DNA of 51,637 nt from a bacterium (GTDB taxonomy: Bacteria; Patescibacteriota; Microgenomatia; UBA8517), in the NCBI GenBank assembly GCA_021790215.1, contig JAJYIG010000002.1:1-51637 (forward strand), read 5' to 3'. A model generated the notes under the pieces. The model saw nothing but the letters and a program-made list of their open reading frames with translations, ran no database searches and had not been told where the DNA came from. The translations under genes were made by a program, and so were the position numbers. Of this stretch, positions 16,170 to 50,680 are shown in pieces. How positions within the stretch are numbered: position 1 is the first letter of the stretch; every line of letters begins with the position of its first letter.

Positions 16170-16868
16170 TCAGTTTGTGGGTGGTACAACTCTGGCTCTC
16201 ACAATGAGTCTCTTGGGATTGGTTGGATCCCCAGGCGGGACACAGGTTACAAGCGTCAAAAAAGAATCGGAATAGTCCTGATCCAAAACCTGGATATCAG
16301 TTGGATACACTTCAAACATTTCTTCAACCCGATAAACGTAAGAAACTCCGTCATAGTTCACATCAATCTCATCCCCTTTTTGTAGAGTTGGGAGGAGAGA
16401 AAATATGGAAATATAATTTTTGGGATTGTAAAAGATGGGCAAGACAGAGTGTCCGAAAATTACAGAATTGCCGCGTTTCCCGGGTAGGGCTGTTCCGGGA
16501 TATTGAACCAGGCTTTTATTTAGATCTCTTCCACCGATGGCGACAGTAGCATTATCAATCCTGAGCTTTGGAACAGAAATAGTAAAATATTTTACCTGTG
16601 TTGAAATAAAGTCACCTTCGCCGGCTGCTCCCGGAAACCAAGTGCTGGCATCTGTATAATCAATATTATTAGTGCCAGTAATTGTGTTGGAAACAGTGCT
16701 TTGTACACTTTTTTCTGTAACCCCGGTCAAAGGGGATACAAATTTTGTATAGTTTTTAGAATAAATCGAATTGTAAGAAACAATAGGATAAATTACCCCA
16801 GTTAGAATCACTACTCCGGAAATTCCGGAAATTACCGCTGCAATACGCAAAACAGTCTTCTGGTTCAT
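16170..16868 (-). CDS. Sortase-family transpeptidase
   Basis: The 232-aa ORF has an N-terminal TM anchor, a catalytic-type His (VIFGHS), the TLVTC active-site Cys motif and a downstream Arg (LIVRARV). Confidence 0.85.
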   Translation of the reverse strand: MNQKTVLRIAAVISGISGVVILTGVIYPIVSYNSIYSKNYTKFVSPLTGVTEKSVQSTVSNTITGTNNIDYTDASTWFPGAAGEGDFISTQVKYFTISVPKLRIDNATVAIGGRDLNKSLVQYPGTALPGKRGNSVIFGHSVLPIFYNPKNYISIFSLLPTLQKGDEIDVNYDGVSYVYRVEEMFEVYPTDIQVLDQDYSDSFLTLVTCVPPGDPTNPKRLIVRARVVPPTN

Positions 16869-16948: not shown

Positions 16949-19135
16949 CTATTCGGAAGTAATATCTATGGAGATATTCTTACTAACCCTGGGAAGAGTT
17001 CCAAATGGCCCAGGAAAGTGAGGGTTAATGCTTACATTGGCATGATCAAAACCCGGAATCGAATTCAAATAATTTTTGGCTACTGTCACAGTCTTGCCAG
17101 AAATATTATTAATTATTAGGTTATTATCAACTTGCGGCAGGAAGTTGGCACCAATTGTTACACTATAAACATAATTTCCACCCTGTTGACTCACAAATGT
17201 AAATTTATAGTCTACCTGGTCTCCCGGCAAATTATATCCAGGTGGGGATTTACCTTTCAAAACACTTTGCGCATATTGCAAAAGTTTTGATTTATCTGCA
17301 GCAATACCGGTTGTAGTAAGACTCAAGGATAATTTGAGACTATCTGCCTGATCTCCAATTTTGTGATCAAAGGCTTGATTGGTAATGTTTGTCGTAGCAA
17401 GACTATTAACAAAAATTTGGTCTGGTGCCACCTTGCCTGTGATGTCGTTAATGGCATTTTGGGAAAGTTCATTTTTCAAATCATTTTCCAAACTGGTTTG
17501 GTCATCCGTGCTAACAGCGGCGATTTCCTGGCTGCTTCCTCCAGAAAAATCAGCTGTTGAAGTTGCTGCAACAAGTGATCTCGAATAATTCCCAACACTG
17601 AAGACTTCGCCTTTTGCTAGATTATATTGAGATCCGATATCTCCCGCTGTTACATTTACATTTGCCGTTCCGGGCGAACCCGGAAGAAGCTGCCCCGAAA
17701 TGGAAGCTTCCGAATCTGTAACAAACCTTAAACCCCCGGAAGAAATCAAAACCGTTCCGGAAGCCAAATTTATTGGGGATCCGTTACCGTTTGCTATCTG
17801 AACACTTCCCGCAGCCTTATTCCCAATTAATTTCGTTCCTGAAGTTGCTTTCGTTTTATCACCTGAAACCTGATCGGTAATAACCTGAGCTGGAATAATT
17901 CCAGAGCCGATATCAAAGGTGCCATTTGGGCTAAAAGAAACTTGAACCGTTTGTTCAAACCTTTTTGGCGTTACAAAAACAGTAATCTTAGCTTTCGGGA
18001 AAAACCACCAAAAAATTCCGGCTGCCACAAGTGCTAAGACAAAAACGCCAAGTGCTATCCAAATTCCATTCCCTTCTGACTTCGGCTGGGAAATCTGATT
18101 ATTGAAAGATTTGGGAGAAAAAATCTTACTAGAAAAAGAATGAAGAACATCTTTTGTTTTTTGAATGTAATTACTGGACATCGGATGAGAAATTGGTTCC
18201 GGCATGACCGGAATAACATTTTGAACCTCGCTGCCTAAAGAAGAAACATCCTCACCTACACTGAAACCCAGCTCCTCCGCGCTTGATTCTTTTGTAAGGG
18301 GTTCATTATCTATCCGTTCCTTTTCTTCCTGAATTGGAGAAACTTCTTCCGGAGTACTCTCCATTGATCTAACTTGAGAGACGTTCCCAATCTCCGCAGC
18401 ACCTGCAAGCGAAACTGACAGAACTTTTCGATCCGGGCTTAATATCTCAGCCTTCGGCGTATGCAAAAATTTTATCTTTTCCATATTATCCCAGGATGCC
18501 TGAATCAAAGACTGTTTGGCTTCTTCCAATTCGCCTTCTTTACCGTTATAGACAATAAACCGCGACGGAAGCGGAACTGCCCCTTCAAATCTAGACAACC
18601 CTTCAGTCATGTCGTCAATCAGAGAAACACTTCTTGAAACCTGAGTTGTTCCAACCAGATTTCCCATTTTAAAAACAGATATTTCTAAAGACTCTCTCCC
18701 AAGCCCTAACACAATGGAACTCATTGGAGCTCCTTCTTCAGATTTATAAAGATGTGCAATAGCCTCAGGTAAAACCACAAAACCAACAGGCGTTAATGAA
18801 AGTTCTGTACAAAGCTTTTTGATTTTTGCCAGATATTCCTCAGCAATTTCCCCCTCCTTTACCCAAGAAGAACAAACACCAAAAACAGTTTTATCCGGCT
18901 CTTTGTAATTCTCAGGAAGCATCTGAACCGCCGAAGAAAGCGCCGCATCCGTAGCACCAACTAGTTCATCGTCACTCTCCCATGCTGCTCCGGGACTGAC
19001 ACTGACAACTTCAGCCGCACTCTCACCTATATACCAAATACCAGCTTGAACCCAGTCTTCTTCTATAACAAGCGACCAATAAAGTTCAGGTGGGTTGTCT
19101 CTATCTGCCAAAAAATCTTTAAGATTCATTTTCAA
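16949..19135 (-). CDS. Large bitopic membrane protein: cytoplasmic domain with a degenerate FtsA/PilM-like (actin-fold) pattern, one TM helix, and an extracytoplasmic domain of about 350 aa
   Basis: This is a 728-aa ORF. The N-terminal segment LSLTPVGFVVLPEAIAHLYKSEEGAPMSSIVLGLGRESLEISVFKMGNLVGTTQVSRSV follows the FtsA/PilM pattern (E..A.a......vvDiGggtT.i.v...G.l), but the phosphate-binding glycines are altered. The TM helix is IWIALGVFVLALVAAGIFWWFF, near residue 360. The C-terminal part is Ser/Thr/Gly-rich and looks beta-rich. Assignment of the fold is inference. Confidence 0.5.
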   Translation of the reverse strand: MKMNLKDFLADRDNPPELYWSLVIEEDWVQAGIWYIGESAAEVVSVSPGAAWESDDELVGATDAALSSAVQMLPENYKEPDKTVFGVCSSWVKEGEIAEEYLAKIKKLCTELSLTPVGFVVLPEAIAHLYKSEEGAPMSSIVLGLGRESLEISVFKMGNLVGTTQVSRSVSLIDDMTEGLSRFEGAVPLPSRFIVYNGKEGELEEAKQSLIQASWDNMEKIKFLHTPKAEILSPDRKVLSVSLAGAAEIGNVSQVRSMESTPEEVSPIQEEKERIDNEPLTKESSAEELGFSVGEDVSSLGSEVQNVIPVMPEPISHPMSSNYIQKTKDVLHSFSSKIFSPKSFNNQISQPKSEGNGIWIALGVFVLALVAAGIFWWFFPKAKITVFVTPKRFEQTVQVSFSPNGTFDIGSGIIPAQVITDQVSGDKTKATSGTKLIGNKAAGSVQIANGNGSPINLASGTVLISSGGLRFVTDSEASISGQLLPGSPGTANVNVTAGDIGSQYNLAKGEVFSVGNYSRSLVAATSTADFSGGSSQEIAAVSTDDQTSLENDLKNELSQNAINDITGKVAPDQIFVNSLATTNITNQAFDHKIGDQADSLKLSLSLTTTGIAADKSKLLQYAQSVLKGKSPPGYNLPGDQVDYKFTFVSQQGGNYVYSVTIGANFLPQVDNNLIINNISGKTVTVAKNYLNSIPGFDHANVSINPHFPGPFGTLPRVSKNISIDITSE

Positions 19136-41106: not shown

Positions 41107-41239
41107 ATTCTGATAGAATTCTCCGAATTATATGACAGCGTCAATTTACCCACTTGCTACGCAAGATTCGATCTTGACTGTTGTCATTGATATTCTAACT
41201 ACTTTACCGTATACTAACAATCTAGAATTTTATATTGTT

Positions 41240-41536
41240 ATGCCAGTAACCAAAACAGCCAAAAGAGCCTTACGGGGTTCCAAAAACAAAGAGTCTGTGA
41301 ACAGCCTTATTATGACAAAACTTGAAATTGCCATAAGGGGAGCCAGAAAAAATAAAACCTCACAAAAGATCATTTCCGCAATTTCTCTTACGGATAGGGC
41401 AGCCAAAAAGAAAGTCATTCATAAAAACAAGGCAGCAAGAATTAAGGCTCAACTGGCCAAATTGCTTGTGAAGAAATCTGAAAGTCAAAGTTCCAAAAAA
41501 AATAAGAAAACTACTAGCCGTAAAGTGGCTAAATAA
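41240..41536 (+). CDS. rpsT: 30S ribosomal protein S20
   Basis: The internal start MPVTKTAKRALRGSKNKESVN... at 41240 gives a 98-aa basic protein typical of S20. The track ORF start at 41132 would add a non-S20 leader. Confidence 0.85.
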   Translation: MPVTKTAKRALRGSKNKESVNSLIMTKLEIAIRGARKNKTSQKIISAISLTDRAAKKKVIHKNKAARIKAQLAKLLVKKSESQSSKKNKKTTSRKVAK

Positions 41537-41672
41537 TCAGATCTCTCCGGTGTCATATCCGAAAATTTTTTGAATCTTCTGAGCGTCCCAATACTCTGAT
41601 CTTCCGACCGGACTTTTCATATGCTATATTGTGAGTAGAAACGATTATCGGAAATCGTTAGCTAATTTGCAT

Positions 41673-42206
41673 ATGCCCAAAACAAAATCCATCAACCTTT
41701 TGCCTCAAGATGAATTTGATGCTTCAGTTATCGGTCGTGTTCTCCATTGGGCAATGGGAACTTTCCGCATTATCGTAATAGTTACAGAAATGATAGTTAT
41801 GGGAGCATTTATATCCCGCTTCTGGCTTGACGCACAAAATTCTGCTGTAAGTAATAATATTAAAGTCAAAGCAGCACAGATTTCTGCTCAAGCTACACAA
41901 GAAAAGCAGTTCAGAGAAATTCAGTCAAAAGTAAACGTTTATAAGGCAATAGCAACTGGCACCCAACCTTCACAAATAATCGACAACGTCACTTCAAATC
42001 TTCCTCCCGATGTGACCCTGACGGGAGTTTCCATATCTGCAAATTCTGTCCAAATAAAAGGCTCTTCTCCGTCGGATCAGGAAATAGCACAATTTATAGC
42101 CAATCTAAAAGCAGAAACACTGTTCAAGACAGTTGACTTGAATCAAGTAAGTTTGTCGCAAAGTGGCACAATACAAACAGTTTTTATAATTCAAATTACA
42201 TACTAA
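41673..42206 (+). CDS. PilN-like type IV pilus alignment-complex protein
   Basis: MPKTKSINLLPQDEF... carries the PilN N-terminal INLLP motif, which is the PilM-binding peptide. One TM helix follows (FRIIVIVTEMIVMGAFISRFW), then a coiled coil and a small C-terminal domain. I prefer the ATG at 41673 to the GTG at 41631. Confidence 0.6.
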   Translation: MPKTKSINLLPQDEFDASVIGRVLHWAMGTFRIIVIVTEMIVMGAFISRFWLDAQNSAVSNNIKVKAAQISAQATQEKQFREIQSKVNVYKAIATGTQPSQIIDNVTSNLPPDVTLTGVSISANSVQIKGSSPSDQEIAQFIANLKAETLFKTVDLNQVSLSQSGTIQTVFIIQITY

Positions 42207-42208
42207 AA

Positions 42209-42862
42209 ATGGCACTTGGTTGGAGAGGATCATACTTAAGATATAAAAGTTTTTTCTTAAACATTTCCGAGCTTTACAAAAAGCGTGCGGATTTCAGGGC
42301 TTTTCTGGAAATAGTCCTCTCTATTTCTACCGTAATAATATTTTTACTCTTCGCACTAAAACCAACAGCAGTAACTATTATCACCCTCTTGCAGGATATT
42401 AAACAAAAAAATGAAACTCTTTCTGCATTGACTCTGAAAGAAAACAACTTACAAACCGCAGAAGCACTTTTGGTACAAAATCAATCTTATCTTCCAGATA
42501 TTGATAATGCCGTACCGACCGCGGCTTCCCCTGATCTTTTGGTAAAACAAATTGAAGGACTTGCCGCCAAAGATTCTGTAAATATTATTGGAGCATCTGT
42601 CAACCAGGTTACAATCCTGGGAACACTACCCCAAAAAAGTAGCACAGTTGGAGCCAAGACTCCGCCAGGAAATACAAATAAAATGCCTTTCTCCGTAAGT
42701 ATCAGGGGAAGCTATTCAAACCTAATGATGTTTATAACAGATTTTGAAAACCTGAGAGTCATAACAGAGATAAACGATCTGGAAATTAGCTCTTCCGCAA
42801 CCGATAAAGGCAGAGTTATAGTAGCTGTAATTTCCGGATGGGAGCCGTTCGTGGGGAATTAA
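42209..42862 (+). CDS. PilO-like membrane protein
   Basis: The 217-aa ORF starts 2 nt after the PilN-like stop. It has a basic N-terminus, a TM helix (ISTVIIFLLFALKPTAVTIITLL), a coiled coil (QDIKQKNETLSALTLKENNLQTAEALL) and a ferredoxin-like-sized C-terminal domain. This is PilO architecture. Assignment is by architecture and position only. Confidence 0.5.
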   Translation: MALGWRGSYLRYKSFFLNISELYKKRADFRAFLEIVLSISTVIIFLLFALKPTAVTIITLLQDIKQKNETLSALTLKENNLQTAEALLVQNQSYLPDIDNAVPTAASPDLLVKQIEGLAAKDSVNIIGASVNQVTILGTLPQKSSTVGAKTPPGNTNKMPFSVSIRGSYSNLMMFITDFENLRVITEINDLEISSSATDKGRVIVAVISGWEPFVGN

Positions 42863-42870
42863 AAAATGAT

Positions 42871-43209
42871 ATGAACAAAAACAAACTGCCAAGCACAATA
42901 TTGATATTGATATTAACTCTGTTTACTGTAATCTTTTGGGTTTTATTTAGCATCTATAGGGCTATAACAGTAAAACCTGTTCCAACAGTACCGGATCAAG
43001 TTTCTGCGTCTTTAAATCCCACTCTGGATCAAAATTCGATAAATAAAATCGAATCAAATATTTTTTTCAATGATTCACAAATTCCGGACAACGTTTTGAT
43101 TGCCCCAACTCCGGGATCTCAACCGACAACAGCACCTTCATTACCGACTCCGGTGGCAACACCAACGGGTAGCGCAAGTTCGAGTGCAAATCCCAACCCT
43201 AGTCCGTAA
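42871..43209 (+). CDS. Small signal-anchored protein with a Pro/Thr/Ser-rich tail
   Basis: MNKNKLPSTILILILTLFTVIFWVLFSIY... is followed by ...APTPGSQPTTAPSLPTPVATPTGSASSSANPNPSP. I prefer the ATG at 42871 to the track start at 42838, which overlaps the previous gene. Confidence 0.5.
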   Translation: MNKNKLPSTILILILTLFTVIFWVLFSIYRAITVKPVPTVPDQVSASLNPTLDQNSINKIESNIFFNDSQIPDNVLIAPTPGSQPTTAPSLPTPVATPTGSASSSANPNPSP

Positions 43210-43236
43210 GAATGAATATTATTCGGAAGAAAGGTC

Positions 43237-44631
43237 ATGATTAAAATAAGCAAAATCCCAACAATCCTAGGTATTCTAATTCTCCTTGCCGGAGTTATAG
43301 CTGGTGTGTATTTCCTCAATCGTGCGCAGATTTTCAATGCCGGCGCTTCTCCCACTGTAACACCCAAAGACATCAGGATGAGTAACATTACTGATACTTC
43401 GGCAACAATTTCGTGGATAACAGCAGACCAAACTTCAGATTTCGTCTTTTGGGGAACTTCTCAAGGATCACTGGGCAAGGTTGGTAACGAAAGTACGTCG
43501 GACCAGAAATACTTTACCCACAGCATCACCTTGACAGGCCTAAGTCCTAGTACAACTTACTTCTACAAAATAAACTCAAATGGAGGCAATTTTGACAACA
43601 ACGGCATCCCTTGGCAATTTACAACAGGGCCAGCTATTACTGAAGGTCAAAACTCGATTACCGTTTCGGGGTCGGTAATCACTTCTTCAGGAGCACCTTC
43701 AAAAAGAGCCATTGTTTATATAACAATCGATGGTTATGTACTTTCAACTCTCACTTCAGACGGAGGAAATTTTGTCTTGCAACTTGGATCGGCAAGGACA
43801 TCGGACCTTACTGCCTTTGCACAAATAGACCCTTCCCAAACCACCCTATCCATCTCCGTTGAGGGGGAGAGTGGGAACACAGCAACTGCACAAGTTTACC
43901 CACAATCCGCAAATCCAGTTCCACCTCTTATCTTGGGACAATCTCAGGACTTCCGCAGTTTACCGCCAAACCAAACCGGCCAAAATCCCAATGCTAGTTT
44001 GAACTTACCACAAGGATCCTCTCAGGAATCAAAATTCAATGTCTCGACTTCTTCTGCTACCCCAACATCCACAAGTGTTATCCTGGAAAGTATCCAGCAG
44101 GGGGAAACTATCACTACAAATCAACCTCAATTTTTCGGCAAGGGTCCGGGGAGAGAGAAGATAACTATAACAATTCATTCCGAAAATCCAATCAGTGAAA
44201 GTCTCATGATTCCACAAAGTGGTTCGTGGAGCTGGAGCGTTCCCACACCACTCTCAGCAGGGTCCCACACTATTACAATCTCCTGGATAGACGCCTCGGG
44301 AATCACTAGAAGTCTAACCAGAGATTTTGTAGTCCAGGCAGGAGAGATTCCAGCCTTTACCGCATCTCAATCAAGCCAAATTCAGACACCGACTCCGGCA
44401 CCAACTACAGCTCCAACCCCAACTCCGACCACGGCTGCAATCGCAGCGGCTCTACCAACAATTGCACCAACCTCAACACCAGTTGAAATTTCTCCGACAC
44501 CCATAGCCTCCCCCGCAAGTCTCCCTGTAACAGGAGACTTGACTCCCACTATTTTCCTCTCCATAATGGGATTAATAATAATTGTCTTTAGCTTTATTGT
44601 CTGGAAATCAGCTGAGAATCAAAATGCCTAA
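43237..44631 (+). CDS. LPXTG-anchored multidomain surface protein (FN3-like, CarboxypepD_reg-like and Ig-like domains, PT linker)
   Basis: This 464-aa ORF has a GAAAGG ribosome-binding site upstream. Its N-terminal anchor is KIPTILGILILLAGVIAGVYF. The FN3/purple-acid-phosphatase-N pattern is ISWITADQTSDFVFWG...THSITLTGLSPSTTYFYKI. The beta-sandwich pattern is VSGSVITSSGAPSKRAIVYITIDGYVLSTLTSDGGNFVL. The C-terminal sorting signal is LPVTG (44521-44535) followed by a hydrophobic stretch and then KSAENQNA. Confidence 0.8.
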   Translation: MIKISKIPTILGILILLAGVIAGVYFLNRAQIFNAGASPTVTPKDIRMSNITDTSATISWITADQTSDFVFWGTSQGSLGKVGNESTSDQKYFTHSITLTGLSPSTTYFYKINSNGGNFDNNGIPWQFTTGPAITEGQNSITVSGSVITSSGAPSKRAIVYITIDGYVLSTLTSDGGNFVLQLGSARTSDLTAFAQIDPSQTTLSISVEGESGNTATAQVYPQSANPVPPLILGQSQDFRSLPPNQTGQNPNASLNLPQGSSQESKFNVSTSSATPTSTSVILESIQQGETITTNQPQFFGKGPGREKITITIHSENPISESLMIPQSGSWSWSVPTPLSAGSHTITISWIDASGITRSLTRDFVVQAGEIPAFTASQSSQIQTPTPAPTTAPTPTPTTAAIAAALPTIAPTSTPVEISPTPIASPASLPVTGDLTPTIFLSIMGLIIIVFSFIVWKSAENQNA

Positions 44632-46243
44632 TCAAAACCAATCTGACCCAAAAAGCCAGTCAGCTGTCCCTGAAACCACCACTCCGCAAACCCAATTACC
44701 AAATAAATCGGTCAGTCAACCATCCGGATTTATTCCTCCTGTAATTTCGCCGCAATCCGATCTTCCCCCACTTCCCCCAGATTTTCAGAATATGCCTAAT
44801 GCATCAAATTCCACATCTCCCAGCCTGCAAATTTCGGAAACACCCACTCCTCAAACGAACGTGCCCGAGTCGCTTTCAACCCCGGAACCCACTTCTGAGC
44901 AGACAGCTAATAGTTCAGATGTTCAACAACCAATAGCGACAGATACGGGATCAGCTGCTCCTCCTCCCAACATTCCTCCGATGACAACAGGGCATAAAAA
45001 GAAATTTGGAACAGTAAAAGTTGTTGCTACAATCTTGGGACTATTTTTACTTATCGGAGGAGTTGGGGCTGGGGTGATTCTAACCCAACAACAACAATTG
45101 TTCCAACAAAGAGCTAGAGTAATTGAGTGCACCCCAGGGGCGACAAATTCTTGCACAGTAGGCAGTAGTTGTGCCGGAACTCAAACCTGTACTTCAACCG
45201 GCAGCTGGGGATCTTGTGTCAAAAATGATTCCACCTGCGGAACTGGATTAACTGAATGCATCCCAGGGCACATAAATTCTTGCACAGCAGACAGTGGTTG
45301 TGCCGGAACTAAAACCTGTACTTCAACCGGCAGTTGGGGATCTTGTGTCAAAAATTTTTCCACCTGCGGAACTACTGGTGGAGGTGGAACAACCACTAGC
45401 TGCTCAGGTACATGCCGAAGCGCTCAATGTTTAAATGGCGAAACCCCAACTTCCGGAAGTTGCGGTGGAGGAACACAAGTTTGCTGCAAACCAATCTCAC
45501 TACCAACTTGTCCCAATACAGACTGTGATATACCTTCCACAACGGGTGGAGCTGTCCAGTGCGTGCTAAGCACAAATCCCGGCGGTAACCCAACATACTG
45601 TTGCCCCTCTTCAAATCCAGTTTACAACTCAGCCATTAAAACATGTGGTCCAATAAGCGGAGTGCCAACCTGCAGTCTCACTGGAAATGAGATATGTGTA
45701 GGTAATGTGGTAACTGGATCCTGTTACCAAGGGGGTCAGGGTGGAGCATACGCCTGCTACAAGCTCAATGGAAATCCTGGAAAGGAAGTTGGGGGTGCCA
45801 GTATAGCTAGTAGCAAATGTACATGCCCAGCACCTTACACATGGGGTCCCGTCAACGAGAATGGTGGCACATGGTGCTTTAATACAAATGTCTCATGTAA
45901 CGGCCAAGCTCCATATGCTGAAAGGTGCTCTTTGCAACCGAAACAATGCAGTACGGTACCTCCAACTTCCAATGGGGCCTACTGCACAAGTGTCAGCACC
46001 TATGATACAAGCTGGAATGTCCTTTCGGCATCCGGAAAGTCTAGCCTTAAAACTGGTAATCAACTTTACTTCTGTGTAGCTGGTGCGAATATGAACTCAG
46101 CCAGTTTCACTGTAAACAATAATGTAGTAGCTAGCCCTGCAACTACTAAAAGGCCTGGATCAACTGATATTTGTCAGCTCTACACAATTACAACTAATGA
46201 TTTTAATAGCAAGTCGTTAAGTGTCTCGGCCAAAGTACAATAA
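44624..46243 (+). CDS. Cys-rich membrane-anchored protein (disordered P/S/T/Q-rich N-terminal region, one TM helix, ectodomain of about 380 aa with more than 30 Cys)
   Basis: The ATG at 44624 overlaps the previous stop (ATGCCTAA). The TM helix is VVATILGLFLLIGGVGAGVIL. The ectodomain has repeated Cys modules (CxPGxxNSCTxxSxCAGTxTCTSTGSWGSCVKNxSTCGT, twice) and further CxxC/CC motifs. I recognise no family. Confidence 0.7.
   Translation: MPNQNQSDPKSQSAVPETTTPQTQLPNKSVSQPSGFIPPVISPQSDLPPLPPDFQNMPNASNSTSPSLQISETPTPQTNVPESLSTPEPTSEQTANSSDVQQPIATDTGSAAPPPNIPPMTTGHKKKFGTVKVVATILGLFLLIGGVGAGVILTQQQQLFQQRARVIECTPGATNSCTVGSSCAGTQTCTSTGSWGSCVKNDSTCGTGLTECIPGHINSCTADSGCAGTKTCTSTGSWGSCVKNFSTCGTTGGGGTTTSCSGTCRSAQCLNGETPTSGSCGGGTQVCCKPISLPTCPNTDCDIPSTTGGAVQCVLSTNPGGNPTYCCPSSNPVYNSAIKTCGPISGVPTCSLTGNEICVGNVVTGSCYQGGQGGAYACYKLNGNPGKEVGGASIASSKCTCPAPYTWGPVNENGGTWCFNTNVSCNGQAPYAERCSLQPKQCSTVPPTSNGAYCTSVSTYDTSWNVLSASGKSSLKTGNQLYFCVAGANMNSASFTVNNNVVASPATTKRPGSTDICQLYTITTNDFNSKSLSVSAKVQ
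45128..45373 (+). repeat. Tandem in-frame duplication (129-bp period) encoding a 6-Cys module
   Basis: Copy 1 is 45128-45244 and copy 2 is 45257-45373, separated by a 12-nt linker. I count 12 mismatches over 117 aligned nt. Confidence 0.9.
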
Positions 46244-46247
46244 AAAT

Positions 46248-46877
46248 ATGGGAAAAGTTACCAAAAGTAAATTCGGAACAATAATAATAATTATTGTGAC
46301 CCTCATTCTAGCAGGGGTTGCGATATTTACCGCCATTAGGCTTTATCAGTTAGGTCAACAGCCGGTTGCACCCAATGTTCCGTCAAGCCAGCCCAAAGCA
46401 GCAGCAGAAAATAGCACCTGCCAACTGAGTTTCAGTTTGGCTACTGCCACCCCAACTGCAACAGCCAGTCCAACAGCCAGTCCAACAGCCAGTCCGACAG
46501 CCAGTCCAACAGCCAGTCCAACAGCCAGTCCAACTGCTACACCCACAGCTCCTCCTGGAGCCACTGCCACGCCAACTGTCACCGCCACCCCAACTGCACC
46601 TCCCGGAGCTCCGAATGCTTGTGGCGGAACATGCGGAAGTAATATCAACTGCGGAAGTGGACTCTATTGCAACACAACCGTTGGCCTCTGTAGAAACCCG
46701 GCTTGCCCGAATCAAACGGATTGTAATTGCCCGGGATCAACTAATGCACCAACTCCAACATCAACCTCTGTGGCAGCAGCACCGAGCCTTCCAAGTTCAG
46801 GAACAGATTGGCCGTCAATCGTAGGCATCTCTATTGGTATACTGACAATTCTAGGAAGCCTAATCCTAGCACTATAG
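46248..46877 (+). CDS. Signal-anchored PT-repeat protein with a compact 8-Cys domain and a C-terminal LPSSG-plus-hydrophobic segment
   Basis: MGKVTKSKFGTIIIIIVTLILAGVAIFTAI... is followed by (TASP)x6 and APPGA repeats. Next come CGGTCGSNINCGSGLYCNTTVGLCRNPACPNQTDCNCPG and then LPSSG (46788-46802) with WPSIVGISIGILTILGSLILAL. I prefer the ATG at 46248 to the GTG at 46221. Confidence 0.7.
   Translation: MGKVTKSKFGTIIIIIVTLILAGVAIFTAIRLYQLGQQPVAPNVPSSQPKAAAENSTCQLSFSLATATPTATASPTASPTASPTASPTASPTASPTATPTAPPGATATPTVTATPTAPPGAPNACGGTCGSNINCGSGLYCNTTVGLCRNPACPNQTDCNCPGSTNAPTPTSTSVAAAPSLPSSGTDWPSIVGISIGILTILGSLILAL
46461..46532 (+). repeat. Six tandem copies of the 12-bp unit ACAGCCAGTCCA (one copy ends in G), coding (TASP)6
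   Basis: Read directly from the sequence at 46461-46532. The repeat is in frame within the 46248-46877 CDS. Confidence 0.95.
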
Positions 46878-46970: not shown

Positions 46971-49445
46971 TTATCTCCACGAAGTGAACCAATAATAACT
47001 ACGATCAAGCCAAAGTGGGATCCGAAACCCGGCCCAATGTGGACAGTAATAAACAAAAATCAAAAGTGCAATTACAAAAAACGGAAGCACAAGCTCTTTG
47101 TTTTTCCTAAGAATATAACCTATTGCAATTGCCAAAAAGGGAACTGCCGGAAGGTAATGATATAAAAACATAATTCTCGGGGAAAGGGCCCACGGTGCAA
47201 ACATTACAAAATAGGAAAAGACGATTAACCCCAGCCTTTTATTTTTCTCCCGATATGCATAAAGAAGGCAAATTAGAATACATACAAATCCAAACCAAAA
47301 AATAACAGGGTTTCCCATTGCATAAATCCTCGCTACCATTCCACCTACGTCATTACTGGTATAAAGATATATCGGGCGAATAAGAAGCGGCCAGCTCCAC
47401 CACTGGGAGCTGTATGGATGAGTCGCAACAAGCCTTGTATGATACCACCACATTTGTTCCTGCATCCCCCACCAGATTGAAAAATTATGCCCTGTCAAAA
47501 ACATATCAAAATAGCTTCCGATATAGACCGCCGGAACTATAATAAAAAACCAGTAGAAAGTTTTCCAAATCTTACCCCAAATCTTCCTCCACGGCGTTCT
47601 TTGAAGAAAAATCATTAATAGAATCGGTGCCGCCCAGGTAGCTGACCATTTTGAAGCAAGTGCGAATCCAAAACTCAAAGCCGACAGAAAATTCCTTTTC
47701 TTGAGAAAAAGGTAGATGGAAAGAAGAGCAAAGAAAAGAATGTAGCTGTCATTCATACCGATCCTGCTCATCACCAAGGCAAGTCCGTCCAAACTAAATG
47801 CGGCCGCAGAAAAAAGTCCTACCACCTCGTCCTCAAAAATTAATTTAGCTAAAAGATAAACTAAAAATACAGACCCTACTCCAAGAATGGCTCCGGGAAT
47901 TCTCCAGCCAAACGAATTCTGTCCAAATATTATCATTCCAAGGGCCATTCCGAGTTTGGCAATAGGCGGATGCGTCCATTCATAGGCAAACCCGGGAGGA
48001 GGAGTGTTCCACCACTCCCAGGCTTTTGCTGCATCGGCACTGAGAATTACTTTTGCAGTAAAAGCGTGATAGACCTCATCAAAATACATTGTCGGGGGAG
48101 AACTTAAATCAAAAACACGGGTAATAAAGGCAAACGCCATAATTACATAAAGAACTACGCGGGCATTTTTTCCAAGAAAACCGGGTTTGGGAAACTTTTC
48201 TTTTTTTGATTTAGTCATCTGGTCTCCAAAATGCGGCCGGACAACGGGTTTGCCCAAAATTGCTTGTACTTTTTTCCAACTCAATTTCAAATTTTTGGTT
48301 AGTGCATAAAAGATAAGGGCAACAAATCCTACATTTAAAAATGACAAAAGCTTAACAGTAAAATCTGAAAAAACCTGCAGGAAGTCCTGGGAAATCCACT
48401 GGTAGGAATAATAAAGATTTAGTATATATGTCAGAGAAAAACCGACCAAGGGGATCGTAAATAAAGGTTCTTCGATAGCCACAATTGTTAGAGGTGCAAA
48501 GATGGGCAGAAGGTGTCTCTCGTGCATTCTGGTAAAGAAAACAAAGCTCCCTGCAAAAATAAAGGTAAGAAGAAGGTATGGCGCATTCTTGGTCTTCCAA
48601 AGTTTAAAACTCAAAAATATTGTTGAAATCAAAACCAGTAGGTAGCCGAGAATCTGGAAGAACACGCTGTCCTTCTTCCAAAAGCCAAAAAGTCCCCAGA
48701 AATTAAACGCATTAATCGAAGTATACGGATATTGATTAAGAGAAATTCCCAAACGTCCGTAAATAAAACTAATTAAGTTTCCGTGATTCCAAAAAGGTAC
48801 GAAGTCTAAAGCAAATATGACAAGCCCCAACGCCATGTACGTAAGAATCTTTCTTAAGTCCCATTTGTTTTTGAGCATCAAAAAGGCAATTACCGGAAAA
48901 GCGAATGCTGTTTGGGGTTTAATAAGAGTTCCGAAAGCAAGAATAAAAGCTGAGGCTAGAGGTTGAGAGTCCAAAATATAAATTGCCAAAATCGAAGTTA
49001 GGGCTGTTAGGGAGTCCACTTGTCCCCACAAGGAAGAATTTGCCCAAACCGCAGGATTAAAAAGATAGATTGATGCTCCAATTAGCCCCAATTTTTCGTT
49101 CCGCCGGATGGCAGGCAGGTTTTTAATGATGATTTTGTAGATAAAGAGTCCCGTGGCCAGGTCTGAAATTATCGCAGGTAATTTATAAAGGACTTCCTGG
49201 GGAATGACCCCGGTATTTAATTTGCCCAAGAACCACAAAACATAAAGATATCCCGGGAGATAATCGCTCCAACCATTATAAAAGGTCTTCAAACCATCCT
49301 TGACCAGAATCGAACTCCAGGCAATAAAAGTGCCTTGATCAAGCCATAAGGCTCCAAAAAAAGACAGAAAGATCCTGAGAAGAAGAGCCAAAAGCAAAAC
49401 AAAAATTATATTTTTATTTTTCTCAAAGAATTTCATATACTTCAC
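46971..49445 (-). CDS. Two-module GT-C membrane glycosyltransferase (N-terminal mannosyltransferase-like module fused to a Pmt/GT39-like module)
   Basis: This is an 824-aa polytopic ORF. The C-terminal half contains MYFDEVYHAFTAKV...EWTHPPIAKLGMALGMIIFGQNSFGWRIPGAILGV, the pattern of bacterial protein O-mannosyltransferase (PMT_2) proteins. The N-terminal half (about 400 aa) is a second multi-TM module with WSDYLPGYLYVLWFLG, resembling GT-C mannosyltransferases. Confidence 0.7.
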   Translation of the reverse strand: MKYMKFFEKNKNIIFVLLLALLLRIFLSFFGALWLDQGTFIAWSSILVKDGLKTFYNGWSDYLPGYLYVLWFLGKLNTGVIPQEVLYKLPAIISDLATGLFIYKIIIKNLPAIRRNEKLGLIGASIYLFNPAVWANSSLWGQVDSLTALTSILAIYILDSQPLASAFILAFGTLIKPQTAFAFPVIAFLMLKNKWDLRKILTYMALGLVIFALDFVPFWNHGNLISFIYGRLGISLNQYPYTSINAFNFWGLFGFWKKDSVFFQILGYLLVLISTIFLSFKLWKTKNAPYLLLTFIFAGSFVFFTRMHERHLLPIFAPLTIVAIEEPLFTIPLVGFSLTYILNLYYSYQWISQDFLQVFSDFTVKLLSFLNVGFVALIFYALTKNLKLSWKKVQAILGKPVVRPHFGDQMTKSKKEKFPKPGFLGKNARVVLYVIMAFAFITRVFDLSSPPTMYFDEVYHAFTAKVILSADAAKAWEWWNTPPPGFAYEWTHPPIAKLGMALGMIIFGQNSFGWRIPGAILGVGSVFLVYLLAKLIFEDEVVGLFSAAAFSLDGLALVMSRIGMNDSYILFFALLSIYLFLKKRNFLSALSFGFALASKWSATWAAPILLMIFLQRTPWRKIWGKIWKTFYWFFIIVPAVYIGSYFDMFLTGHNFSIWWGMQEQMWWYHTRLVATHPYSSQWWSWPLLIRPIYLYTSNDVGGMVARIYAMGNPVIFWFGFVCILICLLYAYREKNKRLGLIVFSYFVMFAPWALSPRIMFLYHYLPAVPFLAIAIGYILRKNKELVLPFFVIALLIFVYYCPHWAGFRIPLWLDRSYYWFTSWR

Positions 49446-49501
49446 AGATTATCTATATTTCTAAATTTAGGAAAAAGGTCTCGCAAAATATATAATTAGC
49501 C

Positions 49502-50680
49502 ATGGCCCATTTCTTAAAACAAAAAATCTCCCAAAAAACTCAACTTCTCCTTTTGGCAGCTATAACTTTTGTAGTTTATCTTTTAAGTTCAGGGGGAGCA
49601 ACCCCCTACAATTATTTTATCAGGCTCTCTGCCGCTTTTTTACATGGAAAATATTACCTTGAGGTAAATCCACCCTGGTTAAACGAACTTGTTCCGATTG
49701 CGGCAGGAAAATTTGCGGTTGTCTACCCGCCAGCCCCGGCAATAGTTGCAATTCCTTTTGTCTTAATCTTTGGTGTAAATTTTCAGCAGCAAATATTGTC
49801 CCAAATAATGGGAGTTTTAGCGGCTTTTATCTGGGGAATTATCACCTATCAAAAATCCAAAAATAAAGTTACTTCTATCTGGATCTTTCTCCTTGCTGCT
49901 CTCGGTAACATTGTCTGGTATATGTCCACAAACGGTTCGGTATGGTACCTGGGACAGGTTTCAGCCTACCTATTTCTTACTTTAACCATCTACGAATCAC
50001 TAAACAAAAAAAGACCGCTTATACTCGCACTCTTTTTTGGTCTGGCATTTCTTTCAAGATTACAAACCGTCCTTGCCATTCCTCTAATCTTTTATTTAAA
50101 TAGAGAAAAATTTAGAAGCATAAAAAAACTATTTTTATTCGGCCTAGGTTTTGGGTTTTTCGGAATAATTTATGCCATTTATAACTACCTGCGCTTTGGT
50201 TCGGTCTTTCAAACCGGATATGATCTTATACCCGGAGTCTTGAAAGAGCCCTGGTTTCAAAAAGGCATATTCAGTATTACTTATATCCCGAGGCACCTAA
50301 AAGTAATTTTTACCTCACTTCCAAAATTCTTAAACGGATTCCCATATTTGGAGCCCTCTTGGGGCGGGCTTGCAATTTGGATTACAACCCCGGCATTTAT
50401 TTATGCTCTTTTTGCCGGATTCCGGAAAAAGGAGGTAATTTTTTCCTGGACCTCAATTATCCTAATTGCACTTGTGGATTTCAGTCACGGTTCAACAGGA
50501 TTTGCACAATTCGGCTACAGATTTGCGGTTGACTTTTATCCGCTAATTTTTTTCCTAGTAGTTGAGGCAATCTCCAAGAAAAAAATCACATGGCACCATT
50601 GGCTTTTACTTTCTATTTCTATCCTGGTCAACTTCTGGGGAGTAATTTGGATTAATAAATTTGGATGGGTAAGTTTTTAA
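49502..50680 (+). CDS. GT-C-type polytopic membrane glycosyltransferase (ArnT/PMT_2-like)
   Basis: The 392-aa ORF has about 10 predicted TM helices. Its N-terminal loop reads PYNYFIRLSAAFLHGKYYLE.. and is followed by VVYPPAPAI. It is divergent from the fused GT gene. The family call rests on architecture and is tentative. Confidence 0.5.
   Translation: MAHFLKQKISQKTQLLLLAAITFVVYLLSSGGATPYNYFIRLSAAFLHGKYYLEVNPPWLNELVPIAAGKFAVVYPPAPAIVAIPFVLIFGVNFQQQILSQIMGVLAAFIWGIITYQKSKNKVTSIWIFLLAALGNIVWYMSTNGSVWYLGQVSAYLFLTLTIYESLNKKRPLILALFFGLAFLSRLQTVLAIPLIFYLNREKFRSIKKLFLFGLGFGFFGIIYAIYNYLRFGSVFQTGYDLIPGVLKEPWFQKGIFSITYIPRHLKVIFTSLPKFLNGFPYLEPSWGGLAIWITTPAFIYALFAGFRKKEVIFSWTSIILIALVDFSHGSTGFAQFGYRFAVDFYPLIFFLVVEAISKKKITWHHWLLLSISILVNFWGVIWINKFGWVSF

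Follow-up and report, generated by a model that had tools for sequence, protein, structure and literature searches.

The locus considered here raises the question of what a pilN–pilO gene pair does when it heads a cassette of surface-protein genes. It lies in a 51.6-kb stretch of a Candidatus Woesebacteria genome (Microgenomates, Patescibacteria), which was analyzed over its full length and is called the window below. After a switch of coding strand at about 41 kb, rpsT (41132–41536) is followed by six plus-strand genes, which encode PilN (41673–42206; 177 aa), PilO (42209–42862; 217 aa), a small bitopic protein (G3; 42871–43209; 112 aa), a secreted multi-domain β-sandwich protein with an LPVTG motif (G4; 43237–44631), a bitopic protein with a cytoplasmic N-terminal tail (G5; 44624–46243), and a protein with a conserved N-terminal helix, a Pro/Thr repeat, a Cys-rich module and an LPSSG end (G6; 46248–46877). 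On balance, and with modest confidence, the locus is read as part of a type IV filament machine, which could serve as a pilus, a competence pilus, or both: its PilN/PilO alignment module would be split from the other pilus genes and co-transcribed with lineage-specific, monoderm-specific envelope partners.

The start codons of the six genes were chosen by orthologue support and public-assembly gene calls, and that of pilN is the same as in the public calls. The gaps between consecutive genes are, in order, +2, +8, +27, −8 and +4 nt. A consensus scan found 6 terminator-like sites, with 5.8 expected by chance, and hence no internal terminator signal above the chance rate; an Rfam search of the window gave no match. 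The 2–8 nt spacing and the 8-nt overlap suggest that translation of neighboring genes may be coupled. A preliminary description of this DNA had proposed six co-directional, tightly spaced, operon-like genes after rpsT, as well as INLLP, LPVTG, Cys-rich and Pro/Thr-rich stretches in their products; the open reading frames (ORFs) and their spacing bear out the layout, and each of the stretches is found in the sequence.

The identities of PilN and PilO, which had also been claimed, hold in both cases. PilN has a cytoplasmic peptide, MPKTKSINLLPQDEF, ahead of a single transmembrane helix, and the PilN domain beyond the helix is periplasmic; the protein scores 45.4 bits against PF05137 (curated cut-off, 22.8). 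A profile of 27 PilN homologues (54–87% identity) matches the PilN chain of the Myxococcus xanthus pilus machine (3jc8_Na; E = 1.5e-6). In PilO, a conserved cytoplasmic N-terminus of 30 aa precedes a single transmembrane helix, which is followed by a coiled coil and the PilO domain; the protein scores 26.1 bits against PF04350 (curated cut-off, 22). When 46 PilO orthologues were scanned singly, 28 matched the Pfam PilO family, and the profile built from all 46 matches the M. xanthus PilO chain (3jc8_Oa; E = 1.4e-6). Models for GspM were not matched above threshold by PilO (T2SSM_b, 17.9 bits vs. a cut-off of 21.7; GspM NCBIfam, 15 bits vs. 60).

The best-conserved region of PilN is its N-terminal part, which includes the INLLP peptide and the neighboring helix. 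In the 27 homologues, I7, N8, L9, L10, P11, E14 and F15 are invariant, and INLLPQEEF and the adjoining helix are invariant or nearly so, with much of the helix invariant. Detectable PilN homologues number 374, all of about 177 aa. Structural work on Thermus and Pseudomonas has established that an INLLP-type peptide binds PilM. Because the PilM-binding peptide is the best-conserved part of PilN, its conservation implies that a PilM-type partner has probably been retained. The cytoplasmic N-terminus of PilO (42209–42300) also has a set of conserved positions, W5, Y9, R11, Y12, Y23 and D28 being invariant or nearly so. Conservation in this region suggests that PilO, like PilN, may have a cytoplasmic contact.

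In an alignment of 41 orthologues, G3 has a K-L-P motif at its start, one transmembrane helix, a Pro/Thr-rich tail and a conserved segment of 35 residues (PLxPxLD...IExRxFF). No relatives of G3 were found in Pfam, and its profile gave only chance matches to single-helix proteins in the PDB. G4 contains a fibronectin-III-like domain (Pur_ac_phosph_N, 1.9e-12; fn3, 1.6e-5) and a Big_13 Ig-like domain (3.9e-9), together with a weak CarboxypepD_reg match below the cut-off. After these domains, the protein runs from a Pro/Thr stalk through LPVTG and a hydrophobic segment to a charged tail, so that its end, LPVTG-DLTPTIFLSIMGLIIIVFSFIVW-KSAENQNA, is a complete three-part sortase sorting signal. In most G4 orthologues, [L/I/V]Px[T/S]G precedes a helix and W[K/R]. 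The domain matches make more specific what the preliminary description called an FN3/Ig-type LPVTG protein.

G6 begins with the helix ILAGVAIFTAIRLYQ, which is the best-conserved part of the protein (column identity, 0.87); Pro/Thr repeats, a small Cys-rich module, LPSSG...PS and a hydrophobic end follow. Under a strict pattern, LPx[S/A]G...PT with a hydrophobic stretch ending in LLLAL, and with no charged tail, is found in 41 of 43 G6 orthologues, the remaining two having LTAAG or LPDAG. Given this recurrence, G6 is counted as a second predicted substrate of the sortase type, even though the charged tail that normally completes the signal is missing. G3 and G5 have no sorting signal. The link to sortase substrates that had been drawn earlier therefore stands, and their number is corrected from one to two (G4 and, as predicted, G6).

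In an alignment of 40 orthologues, about the first 130 residues of G5 form a disordered tail, within which the peptide DLPPLPPDFQN is conserved. KKKFG and a transmembrane helix come next, and a Cys-rich region that varies between orthologues separates the helix from a conserved domain at the C-terminus. KKKFG is kept in at least 90% of the sequences, and since it precedes the helix, the positive-inside rule places the tail in the cytoplasm. In the AlphaFold model of G5, the helix spans residues 132–154 and the last ~90 residues form an Ig-like β-sandwich (pLDDT >90); a Foldseek search of the PDB gave generic Ig-like matches for this fold (best E = 0.095), and Pfam gave none. The tail (44624–45010) has a proline-rich (Q)xDLPPLPPDFQN in most orthologues. 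To judge from its sequence, the DLPPLPPDFQN peptide looks like a short docking motif for a cytoplasmic partner. In G5 of the window, a ~47-residue Cys-rich module that most orthologues lack also occurs twice (45130–45440; C.PG..NSCT..S.CAGT.TCTSTGSWGSCVKN.STCG), and the C-terminus is without the IHHxTLGW ending usual for the family. The middle regions of both G5 and G6 vary strongly between species.

A common N-terminus had been ascribed to the four downstream proteins. When a strict motif, [K/R]-[F/I/L/V/M]-[G/P]-[S/T/G/N] at the helix start, was counted among orthologues, it was present in 29 of 41 for G4, 14 of 33 for G3 and 11 of 44 for G6 (54 of 118 together), as against 2 of 83 other proteins with N-terminal helices from the same loci, one of which is a G6 orthologue that BLAST had missed. 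A looser pattern scanned across the window matched only G3, G5 and G6, G4 having the unmatched close variant KISKIPT. The shared motif thus exceeds chance. In G5, the helix lies at about residue 130, behind the cytoplasmic tail, and is therefore no N-terminal signal.

The transmembrane segments are the best-conserved parts of PilN, G5 and G6: column identity reaches 0.87 and 0.77 in the helix blocks of G6 vs. 0.2–0.6 elsewhere, and 0.62–0.79 in the helix of G5 vs. 0.05–0.3 in its variable region. Such conservation is not usual for cleaved signal peptides. As the helices of G5 and G6 are better conserved than the outer parts of these proteins, it is more likely that they make specific membrane contacts.

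To assess how widely the cassette is kept, one genome per species was scanned, which yielded 54 loci; all those named by lineage belong to Woesebacteria or Microgenomates. Gene counts rest on the 44 species loci with at least 5.5 kb of sequence downstream of pilN, in all of which the operon is conserved at the corresponding position. PilO is present in all 44, G6 in 43, G3 in 42, G5 in 40 and G4 in 38. All six genes occur in order in 31 of the 44 loci, and the five without G4 in 36. Because G4 is missing in several deep branches, the core of the cassette is PilN, PilO, G3, G5 and G6. On contigs of 76–983 kb from relatives, the order is murJ, then rpsT–pilN–pilO–small gene–FN3/Big_13 gene–variable genes, then a gene for a PMT-type glycosyltransferase. 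The preliminary description had named a gene order conserved in no relative among the grounds on which its proposal would fail; the order is kept across relatives, and that ground is removed. One species (locus L061, 8645–9948) has a tandem pair of extra genes between rpsT and pilN. Their products begin with M..(N/R)KGFTPI, which leads into a hydrophobic helix and a Pro/Thr linker. Although this beginning resembles a prepilin leader, the proteins were rejected as pilins, as Glu5 and the long pilin helix are missing and the linker comes straight after the helix.

The enzyme expected to act on the sorting signals is encoded elsewhere in the window. Its only sortase gene (16170–16868, minus strand; PF04203, 4.1e-25; TIGR01076, 49.2 bits vs. 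a cut-off of 39.35) lies 25 kb from the cassette. Models for class C (51.4 bits) and class E (51.0 bits) sortases both scored far below their cut-offs. This sortase is likely to be the enzyme for the signals of G4 and G6. Converging on the end of the cassette is the PMT-type glycosyltransferase gene (46971–49445, minus strand), whose product matches PMT_4TMC, PMT_2 and PMT; it adjoins the cassette in 32 of the 44 species loci. The Pro/Thr-rich stalks of G3–G6 look like natural targets of O-glycosylation, and the PMT-type enzyme may glycosylate them. More glycosyltransferase genes lie past the PMT gene (46971–50680), and relatives (the flanks of L004–L008) also have a LytR_cpsA_psr gene there.

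The rest of the window is mostly housekeeping sequence. A Pfam scan of large ORFs showed that its first 41 kb consist of minus-strand housekeeping genes, including those for translation and transcription (rplC, tuf, fusA, rpsG, rpsL, rpoC, rpoB, infB, nusA and alaS), together with yceG, ruvX, the sortase gene, a gene for a 728-aa membrane protein, ftsK, the RNase J gene and pnp, as well as dnaJ, dnaK, grpE, hrcA and murJ. GC skew is negative across the window (about −0.06 to −0.24 up to 48 kb) despite the strand flip at about 41 kb, where AT skew changes sign. In another Microgenomates genome, the two strands have been reported to differ strongly in composition (PMC7143001).

If the locus is indeed a split alignment module, its products could work together as follows. 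PilN would dock a cytoplasmic PilM through the invariant INLLP peptide and pair with PilO in the membrane, and the unusually conserved helices of G3, G5 and G6 would pack against this pair. The sortase would fix G4 and G6 to peptidoglycan; the wall would thereby anchor the module, which would mark or line the point of passage of the filament. This job falls to PilP, PilQ and TsaP in diderm bacteria, and we know of no counterpart of these proteins in this lineage. Glycosylation of the Pro/Thr stalks would probably be the work of the neighboring PMT-type enzymes.

Several observations weigh against this reading. A Pfam scan of all large ORFs found no motor, platform, peptidase, PilM or pilin gene in the window, which agrees with the absence of motor, platform, PilM and pilin genes noted in the preliminary description. 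Immediately upstream of pilN is rpsT rather than pilM. In a wider neighborhood search, which covered all ORFs of 62 loci and used as seeds PilT and PilM of Pseudomonas together with the N-terminus of a pilin, PilT- and PilM-like genes and prepilin-type N-termini were not found within 10 kb of the cassette in the 54 species, PilC and PilD not being part of that search; the one weak hit was a KGFTPI protein of L061. G3–G6 have no fold or sequence link to known pilus components in Pfam, in the Foldseek search with G5 or in the PDB search with the G3 profile, and the complex among the cassette proteins is one that we infer. In addition, the whole 50-kb neighborhood is syntenic in the lineage, so conserved order alone is no proof of functional coupling, and conserved adjacency is weak evidence of it.

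The missing genes may well lie elsewhere. PilB/T, PilC, PilM, PilN, PilO, PilD and pilins have been reported as widespread in the radiation, without PilQ, and sortase as near-ubiquitous in Microgenomates (PMC6744442). In a closed Microgenomates genome, the single pilus locus lists PilA, minor pilins, PilD, PilB, PilT, PilC and PilM, and PilN and PilO are absent from that listing (PMC7143001); a split arrangement of this sort would look just like what is seen here. Such a split is not universal, since in Saccharibacteria pilM–pilN–pilO are kept together with pilB and pilC (PMC12206443). The invariant PilM-docking peptide and the published pilus loci of Patescibacteria indirectly favor a pilus encoded elsewhere in the genome. 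The preliminary description had gone on to link the pair with sortase substrates in place of a pilus. That does not follow from absence in the window, and the step to "no pilus" is unsupported because the INLLP peptide is conserved and pilus genes are reported to be widespread in the radiation.

The chief alternative without a pilus, to which we assign a small but real chance, is that PilN and PilO have been re-used as a scaffold for secretion, sortase anchoring or assembly of G3–G6, as a display platform in which the 728-aa membrane protein replaces PilM. This would account for the lack of a PilM or motor gene near the cassette in any relative and for the sortase-type signals in two of the four products encoded downstream of PilO. 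In the 728-aa protein (16949–19135, minus strand), a transmembrane helix joins a cytoplasmic domain of the actin-like (ASKHA) kind to an outer domain that resembles Baseplate_J. Its gene is directly upstream of the window's only sortase gene, and relatives keep this pair on the contig that carries the cassette, at a distance of about 25 kb.

Pfam recognizes only Baseplate_J in the 728-aa protein (residues 437–537), and its N-terminal 258 residues have no Pfam match (E up to 10) and no PDB sequence match. The AlphaFold model, built with 38 homologues (mean pLDDT, 78.8), has two β3-α-β-α-β-α lobes at residues 15–255, past which come a disordered linker, a helix at 354–376 and a β-rich outer domain. 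Foldseek matched the N-terminal domain to PPX/GppA, PilM (5eoy; 1.3e-6), FtsA and EutJ, and the C-terminal domain to phage baseplate proteins. Model and matches together uphold the actin-like fold that had been claimed for this protein. The usual DxG phosphate motif is not evident in its sequence. The presence of PilM and FtsA among the matches speaks for a display platform, but the best fold matches are to PPX/GppA as much as to PilM.

In PilM, an inserted 1C subdomain forms the groove for the PilN peptide. The order of secondary-structure elements in the 728-aa protein, in contrast, is that of a minimal two-lobe actin core without a 1C-type insertion. The protein also has no Pfam match to PilM (PilM_2) or GspL, is itself anchored in the membrane, and was for these reasons rejected as PilM; no PilM domain was found by Pfam in ten more distant family members either. 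Moreover, the family comprises 8453 cluster representatives in a search of 1.84 billion, of which the best 150 are all full-length members, and it is annotated solely as "baseplate J/gp47 family"; it is thus far broader than the PilN subfamily of the 54 species. Together with the reported frequency of pilus genes in the radiation (PMC6744442), this argues against a display platform. By the features tested, the 728-aa protein is not a PilM, but it is a possible partner of the system. A more far-reaching version of the display platform, in which PilN and PilO no longer serve a pilus and form, with the 728-aa protein, the sortase and G3–G6, a new envelope machine that would place and covalently fix adhesin-like proteins between membrane and wall in an episymbiotic cell, with the K-φ-[G/P]-[S/T] motif as its targeting signal, appears unlikely.

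It is similarly doubtful that PilN and PilO belong to a type IV machine resembling type II secretion, whose short filament would act as a piston that pushes proteins through the wall, with G3–G6 as its cargo. There is a precedent in Clostridium perfringens, where secretion of two matrix proteins, BsaA and BsaC, is reduced in pilN and pilO mutants and a piston has been proposed (PMC11580942). The variable, Cys-rich middles of G5 and G6 are also as expected for exposed surface proteins under diversifying pressure. However, the helices of G3, G5 and G6 are better conserved than their outer parts, which fits resident partners rather than cargo; G5 has a conserved cytoplasmic peptide, and the cargo genes of C. 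perfringens lie outside its pilMNO operon.

An explanation of comparably low probability is that no functional coupling exists, and that pilN–pilO and the four surface-protein genes share a stable syntenic segment and perhaps a promoter. The order from infB to the PMT genes is kept across the lineage, so conserved order is not special to the cassette. Nevertheless, the flank with the PMT and other glycosyltransferase genes is lost in deep branches while the cassette remains together, the close spacing and overlap suggest translational coupling, and the common juxtamembrane motif and conserved helices point to a shared partner or route. That G3–G6 are non-canonical pilin-like subunits whose K-φ-[G/P]-[S/T] N-termini represent a new kind of class III signal peptide is highly improbable: all four have a basic stretch, then Gly or Pro and a long hydrophobic helix, and Clostridia genes after pilO encode minor pilins (PMC11580942), but prepilin-type processing is rejected because of Pro rather than Gly at −1 in G3 and G4, the lack of Glu at +5 and the helix of G5 about 130 residues from the N-terminus, and in addition G4 and G6 end in sortase signals and the G5 model continues from its helix into Cys-rich β modules without a pilin head.

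Little is understood of the way in which bacteria that lack an outer membrane let type IV filaments through their wall and keep them in place there, and to our knowledge nothing has been described that replaces PilP, PilQ and TsaP in such cells. If the locus is a split alignment module, the operon names four candidates for a link to the wall, two of them bitopic proteins with unusually conserved helices and two predicted to be anchored by sortase. In ultra-small episymbionts, attachment to the host and uptake of DNA are attributed to pili, so envelope parts of this kind bear on how such cells live. Should the genomes prove to hold no pilus genes, PilN and PilO would have been re-used for surface-protein assembly, which has not been described before. 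Full-text searches of the literature on PilN/PilO with sortase or LPXTG proteins in Patescibacteria yielded no description of this arrangement.

Comparison with known systems places the locus among them only in part. Sortase-assembled pili of Gram-positive bacteria, which are marked by a lysine-containing pilin motif (YPKN), an E-box and their own class C sortase at the locus, differ from it in that G4 and G6 have no YPK motif and the sortase gene is 25 kb away. The YSIRK-G/S class of LPXTG proteins in Gram-positive cocci likewise has a C-terminal LPXTG-type signal and, in a subset of secreted proteins, a motif at the start of the N-terminal hydrophobic segment, which in cocci directs the site of secretion and anchoring. 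Unlike YSIRK-G/S, the motif here is K-φ-[G/P]-[S/T] and occurs also in G3 and G5, which lack a sorting signal, and G6 has no positive tail. GspL and GspM of type II secretion share PilN/PilO-like folds, and the 728-aa protein has the layout of GspL, with an actin-like cytoplasmic domain, a helix and an outer domain; however, there is no GspL match in Pfam, and the outer domain is Baseplate_J-like and not GspL-like.

Among pilus loci of Patescibacteria, those of Saccharibacteria TM7x (loci 1 and 2) and Microgenomates Ch65 belong to the same radiation and likewise have no secretin. The Ch65 locus, in which PilM is listed without PilN or PilO, fits a split (PMC7143001), whereas in TM7x, pilM–pilN–pilO stand with pilB and pilC (PMC12206443). 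A link to sortase substrates is not described for either. The pilM–pilN–pilO–cpe2280–cpe2279 operon of C. perfringens is likewise from a monoderm, has small genes for proteins with N-terminal hydrophobic helices after pilN–pilO, and affects the export of surface matrix proteins through pilN and pilO (PMC11580942). In Clostridium, however, the locus also contains pilM and the motor genes, and what follows pilO is designated as minor pilins, whereas here the products after PilO have no prepilin signals and two of them have LPXTG-type signals.

The locus also resembles the PilM–PilN–PilO(–PilP–PilQ) alignment subcomplex of type IVa pili in Pseudomonas, Myxococcus and Thermus. As in those systems, PilN has INLLP, PilO follows directly, each of the two has one helix and a periplasmic domain, and more envelope genes follow in the same operon. 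In contrast to them, no pilM stands upstream, and PilP and a secretin are lacking, as expected without an outer membrane; the genes downstream encode proteins of bitopic or sortase-anchored type, for which no relationship to PilP, PilQ or TsaP could be detected. The core parts of the locus, PilN and PilO, are therefore known, whereas their partners G3–G6 are new, and the arrangement that combines them is conserved across the lineage.

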